Below are positions 45,637-49,846 of a stretch of DNA of 61,938 bases, piece by piece. Under the pieces are notes generated by a model. The model was not told where the DNA came from. It did not search any database and saw only the letters and a program-made list of their open reading frames with translations. Made by a program: the position numbers and the translations under genes. The first letter of the stretch is position 1. Every line of letters starts with the position of its first letter. The DNA lies in NCBI GenBank assembly GCA_021802705.1, contig JAJZRL010000005.1, forward strand, positions 1 through 61,938. The letters run 5' to 3'. Origin of the DNA: a bacterium (GTDB lineage: Bacteria; Patescibacteriota; Minisyncoccia; Phycocordibacterales; Phycocordibacteraceae).

Positions 45637-46003
45637 AAACAGCGCAAGAAACGGAAACTGAAAAATCACCTGCCGGCTGTGGCCGGTTTTTTGATTCTAC
45701 CAGAAGCCGTTTAAACTGTCGCTCTTTGTCGGAAAGCGGCAGGCGCCCTAAGGCGCCTGCCGCTTTCCGTGATTCTGAGAAAGAAGTCTGCTCTCTTTTG
45801 TTCCGCCTATCCTGTTCCATTCGAGAGCTCATATGCGGCTCTCGAACGCCACCGGGTTACGTTATCCGGCTTCCGGGTACCGTTTAAAGACGAGTACCAT
45901 CTCTTCATTCCCCGAAGGAAACGATCGACGTGATACTCCTTTCGGGAGTATCGGTTCCAATTGGATATGTTCCACGAACAGCTTCCGCTACCCGTGCCTT
46001 GTT

Positions 46004-46771
46004 CTGTTTTCCCCTCGTATCGCTACGAGGCATGGACTATATCATCATCCGCTCCTCAAACAGCGCTCGCTTCATCGGATGCCATGACCCGACAACGCGT
46101 GCGAAGTCTGAATGCGATGCGGTGCTTATGAAACAACGCCAGTAATTTGGATCGACACGACGACTCGGATTATGGAGTGCGCCGGTTTTGATACCAAGTG
46201 ACTGAAGGATTTCTTTAAGCATCTGCATCTTCTCTCTGTCTTTTTGAACAAGCTGTATATAGAAGAGGGCATCCTGACTGTGCGGTATACCTCCTTCTGC
46301 ATCGAAGAAACCTCGGATATAAGCCGCTTTTTCTTCACTTGTTTTGAGAGACAGAGGATTGAATCGGAAATCGAGAAATGCTGCGGTAGTTTCAAGATCG
46401 TATACATCACGTTTACCTTCTTGATACATCCACGACCGGTGGCCGAGATGCATGAGAAGATTTTTAAGAATCGTTAGCCATTCGGTTCCTTTTTGAGAGA
46501 ATCGAACACGATTCTTGCGACGATACGCATCATGAAGCGCGCCTTGCAGATATGCTTTGATTTCAGATTTCGATTTGAACGGCGATCGGCGTGTAGTCTC
46601 TGAGGGGTCAATTACGACTTCCCTGCTGATTTTCTGCACCCGACGCATTGTCACGGGCATAATGTTTCCATTATACCGCGTAGCGCGGGATTCTCAGGTC
46701 TTCCAGCATATAGCCAATTTTATTTTTCGAGGGATTACTCCCAAGCGTCGCAACACCGGCAGTCTGCCGGT
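46004..46771 (-). mobile_element. 16S insertion 3 (768 nt, group I-like) between AAGUCGU and AACAAGG
   Basis: The exon ends in U and the intron ends in G. Intron GCGAC about 20 nt in can pair with exon GUCGU with a terminal U-G. It contains a LAGLIDADG ORF. Confidence 0.7.
46037..46660 (-). CDS. LAGLIDADG homing endonuclease (two-motif type, degenerate first motif)
   Basis: 207 aa. IRGFFDAEGG (LAGLIDADG-like) and an upstream YLQGALHDAY. It lies wholly inside insertion 3. Confidence 0.75.
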   Translation of the reverse strand: MPVTMRRVQKISREVVIDPSETTRRSPFKSKSEIKAYLQGALHDAYRRKNRVRFSQKGTEWLTILKNLLMHLGHRSWMYQEGKRDVYDLETTAAFLDFRFNPLSLKTSEEKAAYIRGFFDAEGGIPHSQDALFYIQLVQKDREKMQMLKEILQSLGIKTGALHNPSRRVDPNYWRCFISTASHSDFARVVGSWHPMKRALFEERMMI

Positions 46772-46858
46772 ACGACTTAGTCCTTGTCACTGAATTTGCC
46801 GTAGTCCTGCGCGAGGCAGACCTTCGGGCACCCCCAGCTCCCTTGACTTGACGGGCGG

Positions 46859-47694
46859 ATTGCAATAGGCCGAGACGCCTTTGCGTTCCCACGTAGCGAA
46901 CGGATTTCCCGTACTACGCGAGTCCGACAGTTTTTTGATTCATGCGCAACTTGAGTTCACGAATTTCTCCAACCCCTTCTGTAGTCAAATGCTTCCGCTC
47001 TTTTACAAGCTTGGCGATCTTACAGAAGATATCGAAGCTCGCGCTCTTCGTTGCGCTGCGCAACGGATGTTTCCTGAAGAACGGGATAACAATATCTTGT
47101 ATATCCCGTTCTGCACTTACGGTATAGCGATAACACTGACAATGGTTTGCGCGTTGTTCTTTTTGGAAGTACACCGCACCACACCCTATCGTGTTCCGTA
47201 CTTTCTCAAGCAAGTCTTTATCACGTTCTTGCATTTTCAGATGAAAATGCAATTGAACGCGATGTCCTGCTCGATAACGGTCAGAAGCTCCCATGTTCAC
47301 ATAGAAACATCCTTCGCCGTCCGTAAGTCCGACAACATATTCGTTGCTAACCGTCGGAAGTGTCCTTTCCATACGTCCAGTATAACTTGACGTATGGTAC
47401 TACGACACAGCTGACTTCTCATAGGTGTTCATATCTCGATCCCTATGAGATCTCCTTGGGTCATTATCCATTCCGTTCCTTGCATCCGCTCAATGCGATT
47501 GTGAAGCGCTTCCCCATTACTCACCAGAATGGGTCGCGCATACGCTCTGTATCTCTACAGGAGGGCTGCTTTTTGCTACTAGATCTCTCCGCCGACAACC
47601 TCGCGGCCTGCCGACTGTTCGTTCGCTACGCGTGCTTTCGCACGGGTCCGATTTTAACGGACTGGATTGAATAACTACCAAGCACATTTCTGAA
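46859..47694 (-). mobile_element. 16S insertion 2 (836 nt) within the decoding-centre sequence GUACUCA/CCGCCCGUC
   Basis: The flanks reconstitute UGUACUCACCGCCCGUCA. The boundaries do not obey the simple U / terminal-G rule. It contains a LAGLIDADG ORF. Confidence 0.6.
46914..47372 (-). CDS. LAGLIDADG homing endonuclease (single-motif type)
   Basis: 152 aa. YVVGLTDGEGCFYV motif. It lies inside insertion 2. Confidence 0.85.
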   Translation of the reverse strand: MERTLPTVSNEYVVGLTDGEGCFYVNMGASDRYRAGHRVQLHFHLKMQERDKDLLEKVRNTIGCGAVYFQKEQRANHCQCYRYTVSAERDIQDIVIPFFRKHPLRSATKSASFDIFCKIAKLVKERKHLTTEGVGEIRELKLRMNQKTVGLA

Positions 47695-48735
47695 TGAGTA
47701 CAAGACTCGAGAACGTATTCACCCCGGTTTGGCTGACCCGGGATTACTAGCGATTCCGGCTTCATGAGGTCGGTTGCAGACCTCAATCCGTACTGGGGTC
47801 GGTTTTATAGGGATTGGCTCCGCCTTGCGGCATTGCAACCCGTTGTACCGACCATTGTATTATGCGTGCAGCCCAAGGTATCAGAGGGACATGCTGATCT
47901 GGCGTCATCCCCACCTTCCTCTCCCGTGAGGGAGCAGTCTCGCCTGGCCATATAGGCAACAGGCAACGGGGGTTGCGTTCGTTACCCCACTGAAGGGAAC
48001 AGTTCAAACCACGAACTGACGACGACCATGCATCACCTGCCCAACACCCTCGAAGGCTCCTCACCTTTCGGCGAGGATGCAGTTGGGTTTCTAACCTTGG
48101 TAAGGTTCTTCGTTTGTCGACGAATTAAGCCGCATAATCCACCGCTTGTGCGAGTCCCCGTCTATTCCTTTGAGTTTTAATCTTGCGATCGTACTACCCA
48201 GGCGGCTCGCTTACCGCGTTAGCTTAGCCTCACAGAGGGTCGATACTCCGTAAAGCGAGCGAGCAACGTTGAGGGCCAGGACTACCGGGGTATCTAATCC
48301 CGTTCGCTACCCTGGCTTTCGTGTGTGAGCGTCAGGAACGTACCAGTGCACTGCCTTCGCCTTTGGTGTTCCCCATGATATCAACGGATTTCACCCCTCC
48401 ACCATGAGTTCCGTGCACCTCTTACGCCCTCGAGCCATACCGTTTCCTCCGCTAGCCGCAGGTTAAGCCCACGGATTTCACAAAAGACTAATATGGCCGC
48501 CTCGACACCCTTTACGCCCAATGATTCCGGGTAATGCTTGGGGCCTCTGTATTACCGCTCCTGCTGGCACAGAGTTAGGAGCCCCTTATTCATCGGGTAC
48601 CGTCAATAAACTTCGTCCCCGATAAAAGATGTTTACGTACCGAAGCACTTCATCCATCACGCGGCGTCGCTCCGTCAGGCTTTCGCCCATTGCGGAATAT
48701 TCTCGTCTGCAGCCTCCCGTAGGAGTATGGGCCGT

Positions 48736-49436
48736 CGTTTATTCCATAATTTCTTATGGCACAGACTATACTTTCACCCTCGTTCGCGCGAGGGGCTTGC
48801 GTCTTACAGAATCCGAAGATTCTGTCTTCATCCCGGTTTTCTCCGGGATTCCAGTCGTTACGGGGTCAAACACTCGTATTTCGCGCTTTCCTCCCGTAGA
48901 GGAGTTTAGGCTGCGAATTTTCTGCACTAATGACAGAATACGAATATACGCTCCTTCAGACAGCGTGCTTGGTTTGTGTTTCTCATTTACGCTCATCCTT
49001 TTCAATACTTCAAGAGCCAGGTTTGCCTGGTCTTTCTTTATGAGAAGGAATGGCACGAGACGCGCGAGCACCGCTTTCACTTGGCTTCGTTCTTGGACAA
49101 CCAACTCTGCGAGATTTTTGCGCTTATCGGTTCGGATGACCCCGAAACTTCCAAGCGCTTCTCGCACCAATCTCAATTTACCTATATGCCGCGCATGTTG
49201 GGTGAAATTCACCTTGATGCGCACACGATACGGGAACCGTTTGCTGTGATAACGCTCAAGCGTTGCCACAACAGAACCGTCTCCGTCCAAAAATCCAGCC
49301 AAATATTCGTCTGATGGATAGTGTCGACTTCCCACGGTATTGCCTTTGATGGGTACCATTATACACCCATCAGTCAGGTTCCACCGTTATGAGCAAGATT
49401 TATCATTGGGGATTACTCCCCAAGGAGACAACTTTT
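48736..49436 (-). mobile_element. 16S insertion 1 (701 nt, group I-like) between ACUGAGAU and ACGGCCCAUACUCC
   Basis: The exon ends in U and the intron ends in G. Intron GUCUC (nt 8-12) pairs with exon GAGAU with a terminal U-G. An S-element-like AAAGUAUAGUCUGUGC lies near the 3' end. It contains a LAGLIDADG ORF. Confidence 0.75.
48766..49359 (-). CDS. LAGLIDADG homing endonuclease (single-motif type)
   Basis: 197 aa. YLAGFLDGDGSV motif. It lies inside insertion 1. Confidence 0.85.
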   Translation of the reverse strand: MVPIKGNTVGSRHYPSDEYLAGFLDGDGSVVATLERYHSKRFPYRVRIKVNFTQHARHIGKLRLVREALGSFGVIRTDKRKNLAELVVQERSQVKAVLARLVPFLLIKKDQANLALEVLKRMSVNEKHKPSTLSEGAYIRILSLVQKIRSLNSSTGGKREIRVFDPVTTGIPEKTGMKTESSDSVRRKPLARTRVKV

Positions 49437-49846
49437 ATCTCAGTCCCATCGGTGGGGATCAGGCTCTCACCCCCCCTAAGCGTCGTAGCCTTGGTAAGCC
49501 GTTACCTTACCAACTAGCTGATACTGCGCAGGCAACTCCCGAAGCGAAAAACCTTTACCCTTGCGGGACTATCGGGGATTACCCCGTCTTTCGACGAGCT
49601 ATACCCGACTTCGGGGGATCTACCTACGTGTTACTACCTCGTTTGCCGGTTGTCCTTGCGGACCCCCTTGACTTGCATGACTTATCCACGCCGCCAGCAT
49701 TCACCCTGAGCTAGGATCAAACTCTCATTAAGAATAGGCGGAACAAAAGAATTCATACTTCATTATTTCTCATTCACGTACTTGCACGTATTCGATTTTC
49801 AAAGGTCAAAAGAAACCCCGTCCCGTTACAGCGGGACAGTACCGCT

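Follow-up and report, generated by a model that had tools for sequence, protein, structure and literature searches.

A 16S rRNA gene from the candidate phyla radiation interrupted by two group I introns and one group II intron encoding LAGLIDADG proteins

We analysed a 61,938-nucleotide stretch of bacterial DNA (contig JAJZRL010000005.1), hereafter called the window, the minus strand of which carries a 16S rRNA gene of 3,773 nt (45960..49732) interrupted at three sites. Our conclusion, which we hold with strong confidence, is that this region is a real 16S rRNA gene with three introns in it, two of group I and one of group II. An earlier note on this DNA, made from the sequence alone, had placed by eye three interruptions of a colinear 16S gene near positions 328, 1398 and 1498 of the Escherichia coli gene, and these positions proved to be exact in our global alignment. 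Coordinates given for features of the 16S gene in the window are on the minus strand unless the plus strand is named, and E. coli positions are preceded by Ec.

The interrupted gene and its junctions

The limits of the gene were set by the match of the Rfam bacterial small subunit (SSU) rRNA model and by global alignment of the joined exons to E. coli K-12 rrsB, which was used as the reference in place of L001 (a 1,519-nt variant copy). The joined-exon molecule, of 1,476 nt including a few flanking bases, aligned end to end with rrsB at 72% identity, and the junctions fell between Ec328 and Ec329, Ec1398 and Ec1399, and Ec1498 and Ec1499. A one-step MAFFT alignment of the whole region with the E. 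coli 16S gene scattered the exons over the insertions and was dropped; BLAST anchors, hand reading and the global alignment of the joined exons were used instead.

Exon 1 (49437..49732, Ec1-328) ends in a U, where intronless relatives have a C. It is followed by intron 1 (S328; 48736..49436, 701 nt), exon 2 (47695..48735, Ec329-1398, 3' end UGUACUCA), intron 2 (S1398; 46859..47694, 836 nt), exon 3 (46772..46858, Ec1399-1498), which forms the body of helix 44 and ends in AAGUCGU, intron 3 (S1498; 46004..46771, 768 nt), and exon 4 (45960..46003, Ec1499-1542), which contains helix 45 with its GGAA loop and a 3' tail, GGAACAUAUCCAAU, without CCUCC. The three insertion lengths agree to the base with those first given. 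The four exons total 1,468 nt, and insertions account for 61% of the gene, as expected from the earlier statement that more than half of it is intron. The G+C content is 50-61% in the exons and 48% in the insertions.

Related loci (L numbers) were found through homologues of the three encoded proteins, and the introns are present in some of them and absent from others. The empty S328 site of L003, L005 and L007 reads GAGAC followed directly by ACGG, the empty S1498 site of L005 and L007 reads AAGUCGU followed by AACAAGG, and the empty S1398 site of L017 and L031 reads UUGUACUCA followed by CCGCCCGUCA. Every junction is confirmed, since a natural empty site exists for each among the relatives.

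The prediction that standard callers would mis-size this gene was borne out. The sole match of the Rfam bacterial SSU model (47656..48849, 940 bits) covers 1,194 nt, essentially exon 2, and the search squeezed the whole model into about 1.2 kb of the gene. The primer sites 1392-1406 and 1492-1513 are split by insertions 2 and 3, respectively. This 3.8-kb gene is thus a fully delimited example of how members of the candidate phyla radiation (CPR) escape rRNA surveys. We also observed that the 515F primer site (48573..48555) reads GTGCCAGCAGGAGCGGTAA, with two mismatches to GTGCCAGCMGCCGCGGTAA; even the V4 region, which has no intron, would amplify poorly.

Folds of the three introns

Intron 1 is a group I intron, IA-like in its organisation. 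Its internal guide sequence (IGS) GUCUC (49429..49425) is followed by P2 (49423..49406), the 5' strand of P3 (CUUGC, 49396..49392), the P4-P5-P5a-P4' unit (49387..49334) and the 5' strand of P6 (49333..49321). The 3' strand of P6 (48873..48862) leads into J6/7 and the 5' strand of P7 (48861..48853), the hairpins P7.1 (48849..48830) and P7.2 (48825..48806), the 3' strand of P3 (GCAAG, 48800..48796), P8 (48794..48777), J8/7 with the 3' strand of P7 (48776..48764), P9 (48759..48744) and the terminal omega-G (48736). Two hairpins between the 5' strand of P7 and P3' were reportedly recognised by Michel and Westhof in 1990 as the hallmark of subgroup IA, and our subgroup reading rests on P7.1 and P7.2.

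The fold that we tested was a hand-built model consisting of P1, P2, P3, P4, P5, P5a, P6, P7, P7.1, P7.2, P3', P8, P7' and P9. It was applied to an alignment (A2) of 14 same-site introns from which the open reading frame (ORF) had been removed and in which P6 was closed with an artificial GAAA loop. The paired cells amounted to 85.9% (74 pairs, 14 sequences), compared with 74.5% in the shuffles, none of which (0/500) reached the observed value, and with 36-44% when the partners were slid. This covariation among homologues upheld the group I assignment that had been proposed for insertion 1. Pairing reached 100% in P3, 98.6% in P4, 97.6% in P5, 91.6% in P6 and 95% in P8, and compensatory pairs were found in P2 (7/7), P3 (4/5), P8 (4/6) and P9 (3/6). 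Exchanges of the U-A/C-G/G-C and C-G/U-A kinds occur in P4 and P6, while P7 (GACU/AGUC) is invariant in the 14 sequences. The low scores of P5a, P7.1 and P7.2 result from MAFFT misalignment of these length-variable hairpins, which covary by eye. P1 (GAGAU/GUCUC) is 94% paired in the same sequences, with one A-U pair of exon and guide replaced by C-G (exon GCGAU, guide GUCGC), and a terminal G precedes ACGG in every same-site S328 intron extracted.

Two other pairings were rejected for intron 1. P7 placed directly before P3' (AGAC/GUCU) was discarded because its bases do not covary; GACU/AGUC as P7, with P7.1 and P7.2 between it and P3', fits all of the S328 sequences. P4 drawn as ACGGUGG/CCCCGU was discarded because compensatory changes favour ACGGU/ACCGU, and such changes also back P6 as GGGAAGUC.../...GACCCC. 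The conserved RNA ACCGUGGGAAGU (P4'/P6, 49334..49323) is translated as TVGS in the ORF1 of the window type and as PWEV in the other ORF1 subfamily. Its conservation is therefore at the RNA level, since the same RNA is read in two frames by the two subfamilies.

When genomes were scanned with the ORF1 alignment, about 20, drawn from many CPR lineages, had the element at the S328 site; their labels include Kaiser-, Sung-, Yanofsky-, Zambryski-, Taylor-, Nomura- and Levy-bacteria. L038 (2389..3124 of DATLNM010000020.1), a metagenome-assembled genome (MAG) labelled Actinomycetota, also has a group I intron at S328, together with a related endonuclease. The 16S exon of this locus is 81% identical to that of E. 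coli (72-73% for the CPR genes) and has a normal UGUACACACCGCCCGUCACG stretch. The presence of the intron there means that the S328 family is not confined to CPR, or else that the L038 contig is mis-binned.

Intron 3 is a canonical group I intron. It starts with a P1-extension hairpin (46771..46755), followed by the IGS GCGAC (46751..46747), P2 (46745..46728), P6 (46623..46604), the 5' strand of P7 with P3' (46601..46584), a P8 that encloses the body of ORF3, J8/7 with the 3' strand of P7 (46046..46034), P9 (46030..46013) and omega-G (46004). RNAalifold analysis of six same-site introns with the ORF deleted recovered P1 (GUCGU/GCGAC, with its U.G pair), the P1-extension hairpin, P2-P6, P8 and P9, with 19 compensatory pairs. 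P7 (GACUA/UAGUC) and the G before AACAAGG are invariant in the six sequences. The Rfam group I model RF00028 scored 43.2 bits on intron 3 (E 7e-9), under its gathering cut-off of 50, and 55.4 bits, over that cut-off, on the L003 homologue, which is 80% identical. The guide pairings, the terminal G and the GGGAGUAAUCCC hairpins on which the earlier note had based a group I reading of insertions 1 and 3 were all read as described. These two introns have in common the P2 hairpin GGGAGUAAUCCC and the P6 motif GGGAAGUC/GACCCC.

Intron 2, which had been left unclassified, is a group II intron, IIC-like. It opens with a 9-nt linker (47694..47686), followed by GUGCU (47685..47681), domain 1 (about 47681 to about 47460), domain 2 (D2, 47454..47413), domain 3 (D3, 47406..47362), domain 4 (D4), which holds ORF2, a 35-nt domain 5 (D5, 46922..46888) and domain 6 (D6, 46884..46862), and its 3' end is AAU. 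We compared seven distinct copies. A variable 9-nt linker precedes the 5' motif G(U/C)GC(U/C), conserved as far as G(U/C)GC(U/C)(U/C/A)GG, and the 3' end is AU. RNAalifold drew a multi-branch domain 1 (D1), closed by CUUGG/CCAAG just after the 5' motif, and then D2 and D3, with 80 pairs over D1-D3, 32 of them compensatory. An invariant loop, GGUGAGU (47525..47519), is carried by a covarying stem of D1, and its UGAGU(A) is the complement of (U)ACUCA, the last bases of the exon before the insertion; this is the pairing of exon-binding site 1 (EBS1) with intron-binding site 1 (IBS1).

The D5 hairpin has a CGC triad paired with GUG, a middle G.U pair and a 2-nt UC bulge; counted in six sequences, it is 100% paired, and two compensatory pairs lie in its upper stem. 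In IIC introns, such as that of O. iheyensis, domain 5 typically has a CGC triad. An A at -8 (46866 in the window) is bulged out of D6 in the window copy, L003, L007 and L093. The EBS1-IBS1 pairing places the 5' splice site at the junction of exon and linker, as the empty sites require, and the linker is therefore intronic. Retention in the rRNA of the 9 nt before GUGCU was rejected, since intronless alleles read UACUCACCGCCCG. Also rejected, as a chance match, was a hit of the group II domain-5 model RF04356 (26.2 bits, 47071..47118), which lies on the plus strand within ORF2, antisense to the 16S gene.

A different insertion of 990 nt was observed at about Ec1397/1398 in L012 (4164..5154 of OY969413.1), where it encodes a 170-aa LAGLIDADG protein (YVAGFIDGEGSF). 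A second kind of element thus competes for the site near Ec1398. L012 is without an S1498 intron.

Encoded proteins, host and neighbouring genes

The ORFs of 197, 152 and 207 aa listed in the earlier note are three different LAGLIDADG proteins, as it had stated; all of their Pfam matches are above the cut-offs, and their structural relatives differ. ORF1 (48766..49359, 197 aa) matches LAGLIDADG_1 (4.8e-7) and has a single motif, YLAGFLDGDGS, of which D25, D27 and G28 are invariant among the aligned homologues. Its relatives in the PDB are the homodimeric I-MsoI and I-CreI. ORF2 (46914..47372, 152 aa) matches LAGLIDADG_1 (2.3e-20) with the single motif YVVGLTDGEGCF, which includes LTDGEG, and is related in the PDB to one half of the I-OnuI-type enzymes; its homologues are 152 aa long in nearly all of the matches listed. 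ORF3 (46037..46660, 207 aa) matches LAGLIDADG_3 (2.8e-14). It gave no sequence-level match in the PDB, and its AlphaFold model (pLDDT 86) superposed on full-length I-DmoI (E 4e-10, TM-score 0.6-0.7, about 180 aligned columns), so that ORF3 is predicted to be a two-domain, I-DmoI-like monomer. Its acidic residues D44 (motif YLQGALHDA) and E122 (motif FFDAEGG) are invariant in 28 homologues. The three families contain at least 121 (ORF1), 742 (ORF2) and 1,007 (ORF3) proteins, which, where named, come almost wholly from Patescibacteria.

The coding sequences are interlaced with the ribozymes. ORF1 lies in the P6 loop, with both strands of P6 coding, and starts in the P5a loop; a C-terminal tail of about 40 aa crosses P6'-P8. 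The body of ORF3 lies in the P8 loop, and its residues 1-25, encoded by P4'-P6-P7-P3', are disordered in the model. We observed that the three stop codons (48766..48768, 46914..46916 and 46037..46039) are all UAG inside a conserved catalytic element. Those of ORF1 and ORF3 are the UAG in AUAGUC of J8/7-P7 (within GAUAUAGUCC for ORF3), and that of ORF2 is in the 5' strand of D5, within CGCGUAGU.

Exon 2 shares 96% identity with its counterparts in L012 (OY969413.1, a Candidatus Kaiserbacteria chromosome) and L003 (a MAG labelled 'Pacebacteria'), and tRNA-Ile, PrcB_C and Mur ligase genes neighbour the 16S gene in independent assemblies. Because of this identity and this shared neighbourhood, we assign the host to the CPR (Patescibacteria), close to Candidatus Kaiserbacteria. 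L012 and L003 differ from each other in their intron sets despite this 96% identity, as expected for mobile elements. In L003 we also observed an extra ORF-less segment of about 95 nt in exon 1 (2420..2516), between the window exon-1 positions 162 and 171, which is absent from the window gene.

Other observations concern the rRNA genes more generally. They are unlinked, and their order on the minus strand (45562..61938) is unusual: 23S, 5S, about 10 kb of protein-coding genes, 16S and tRNA-Ile(GAU). The 23S gene (60296..61938, minus strand), cut at the window edge, contains an ORF-less, group-I-like insertion (60561..60911) that RF00028 matched with 40.6 bits (E 2e-8); over the 23S match, 1,058 model positions are spread across 1,643 nt, which leaves about 585 nt extra in all. 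A tmRNA match of 15.8 bits (59917..59977) was dismissed as noise. The 3' tail of the 16S gene (45960..45975) reads GGAACAUAUCCAAUU, and that of relatives AAUAAUUCAAUU. The CCUCC core of the anti-Shine-Dalgarno sequence is missing from the window, L003, L005, L007, L012, L017 and L090-L094, while L031 and L038 keep the tail ACCUCCUU. These tails suggest that the whole clade may be without canonical Shine-Dalgarno pairing.

Splicing, rival explanations and known systems

We propose that three independent mobile self-splicing introns have colonised universally conserved sites of the 16S gene, each carrying its own LAGLIDADG gene in a peripheral loop (P6 in intron 1, domain 4 in intron 2 and P8 in intron 3). 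The gene would be transcribed as a precursor of about 3.8 kb, from which each ribozyme would excise itself and ligate the exons. In introns 1 and 3, guanosine would attack at the U.G pair of P1, and the exons would then be joined after the terminal G. Intron 2 would splice at the site set by EBS1 (UGAGU) and IBS1 (ACUCA), 9 nt upstream of GUGCU, its first step being carried out by the bulged A of domain 6 or by water. After three splicings the mature rRNA would measure about 1.47 kb. The endonucleases would cleave, at the corresponding sites, 16S alleles that lack the intron, and repair would copy the intron in, a homing process that would explain the differing intron sets of genomes with 96%-identity exons. 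According to the survey of Tsurumaki et al. 2024 (PMC11270868), transcripts lose the CPR rRNA insertions that Brown et al. 2015 found, and one CPR rRNA-intron enzyme, I-ShaI, was demonstrated to be active. If the proposal is right, one essential gene of single-copy type can harbour three selfish elements that are independent of one another and belong to two ribozyme classes, and ribosome production would depend wholly on accurate splicing, since two of the three introns adjoin the decoding centre.

Several points weigh against this explanation. Excision and ligation in this organism are deduced from sequence, and our scope was one window, which leaves room for another 16S gene, free of introns, outside it. 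The RF00028 search recommended in the earlier note gave a match to insertion 3 below the cut-off and none to insertion 1; when insertion 1 was searched alone at E<=10, only three unrelated families appeared, apparently as noise, and no S328 intron of the 10 related loci was matched either. For intron 2, the match of the group II model RF01998 (47362..47454, D2-D3) was weak (26.7 bits for a cut-off of 35), and no Rfam domain-5 model matched the gene strand. In this intron a 9-nt linker and GUGCU stand where GUGYG would be expected at position 1, and D6 of the L005/L092 type has no bulged A in the minimum-free-energy fold. Finally, the read-through tail of ORF1, of about 40 aa, is wholly or partly missing in about half of the aligned homologues. 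A negative Rfam result is nevertheless no refutation for these insertions, because RF00028 misses intron 1, which covaries as a group I intron, and under-scores intron 3.

The failure of Rfam to call introns 1 and 2 would also suit another explanation, in which the insertions are intervening sequences cut out by RNase III-type host RNases without religation, leaving an SSU rRNA in four fragments. Intervening sequences that lead to fragmentation are known from bacterial 23S genes, and Tsurumaki et al. suggest that they also account for some CPR insertions (PMC11270868). We consider this highly improbable here, because all three insertions have complete catalytic-core folds kept under purifying selection, as seen from the compensatory changes, and because the splice-site rules (U.G pair of P1, terminal G, EBS1-IBS1 pairing and terminal AU) are maintained although RNase III would have no need of them. 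Moreover, no long flanking stem joining the two ends of any insertion was seen on reading the sequence. The restriction to one window and the fragmentary Rfam SSU call would likewise fit a decaying, non-functional 16S copy or an assembly chimera, with the working 16S gene elsewhere in the genome. This is scarcely credible, since the exons are colinear with the E. coli 16S gene and match those of related genomes at 96% identity, and since the same gene with the same neighbours occurs in independent assemblies. The intron ORFs are intact, and a single rRNA copy is usual in CPR genomes (PMC11270868).

A last alternative is a refinement of the self-splicing explanation more than a true rival. It accepts the introns as real and supposes that at least one of them needs a LAGLIDADG maturase or host factors, or that intron 2 splices only by hydrolysis. 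LAGLIDADG maturases are known (PMC11270868), all three ORFs overlap core helices, and a linker separates the 5' splice site of intron 2 from GUGCU. Some S1398 members are without a clear bulged A, and IIC introns often splice by hydrolysis (PMC13190283). However, D6 of the window has a canonical bulged A at -8, and CPR genomes also retain such introns in ORF-less form (PMC11270868), which speaks for an RNA able to splice unaided by its own protein. We regard this refinement as rather unlikely, and we favour splicing by the introns themselves.

The survey of CPR rRNA insertions by Tsurumaki et al. 2024 (PMC11270868) is the closest published work. It described, in the same host group, group II-like introns with LAGLIDADG_1 proteins at position 1400 of the 16S gene and group I introns with LAGLIDADG_2/3 proteins at 1498. 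The two 3' sites of the window gene correspond to its sites 16IS9 (1400) and 16IS10 (1498), with the same pairing of intron and protein (group II-like with LAGLIDADG_1 at about 1400, group I with LAGLIDADG_3 at 1498), and multiple insertions per gene and similar, mostly small enzymes are found in both. The survey classed insertions by Rfam models only, so that an intron like S328 would land in its 'no hit' class; its site positions are given in figures only, and S328 was not matched to a numbered site. The LAGLIDADG_3 protein ORF3, a single domain in Pfam, is predicted here to fold as a two-domain, I-DmoI-like monomer.

Intron 2 is comparable, by published description, to the rns-1396 family of group IIC introns with LAGLIDADG genes, which giant sulfur bacteria carry in their 16S genes (Salman et al. 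2012; see the analysis of Liu et al. 2026, PMC13190283). That family always has a 5' terminal linker, an ORF in domain 4 with a single motif and no EBS2, and the report describes it only in Thiotrichaceae (PMC13190283). Both occupy the same place in the 16S gene (the family is named for position 1396, and we counted intron 2 between 1398 and 1399), and both have the 5' linker, the ORF in D4, no obvious EBS2 and a single-motif enzyme related to the fungal I-OnuI lineage. The host of intron 2, in contrast, is a CPR bacterium, and the homologues of its enzyme, at least 742, are named almost only from Patescibacteria.

The IA introns of chloroplast 23S genes that encode I-CreI and I-MsoI share with intron 1 the P7.1 and P7.2 hairpins, and their enzymes are the closest relatives of ORF1. 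They differ from intron 1 in their host gene (23S, instead of 16S at position 328); in intron 1 the ORF lies inside P6, whose two strands are both coding, and RF00028 is blind to the intron. The monomeric enzymes I-DmoI and I-Tsp061I, encoded by archaeal rRNA introns, resemble the predicted fold of ORF3, and one acidic residue per motif is conserved. However, the sequence identity is only about 20%, and ORF3 belongs to a group I intron, whereas archaeal introns of their kind are cut by the splicing endonuclease; it also has an N-terminal extension of 25 residues encoded by the ribozyme core.

These comparisons lead us to a joint proposal, advanced tentatively and with somewhat less than even confidence, that S328 is a widespread group I family invisible to the current covariance models and that Patescibacteria are the main reservoir of S1398 LAGLIDADG group II introns. 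In the S328 family, both P6 strands, P4' and the stop codon in P7 would then double as RNA and coding sequence, and the obligatory 9-nt linker of the S1398 introns would imply a splice site chosen by EBS1-IBS1 alone, distant from the 5' motif. Covariance models for both families, which Rfam at present misses, could be built from our boundaries, helix maps and alignments. The phenomenon itself, two of the three sites and their pairings of intron and protein are already published for CPR. To these the window gene adds modest new points, namely the fold assigned to S328, the I-DmoI-like fold predicted for a LAGLIDADG_3 protein and the large Patescibacteria membership of the S1398-type introns.

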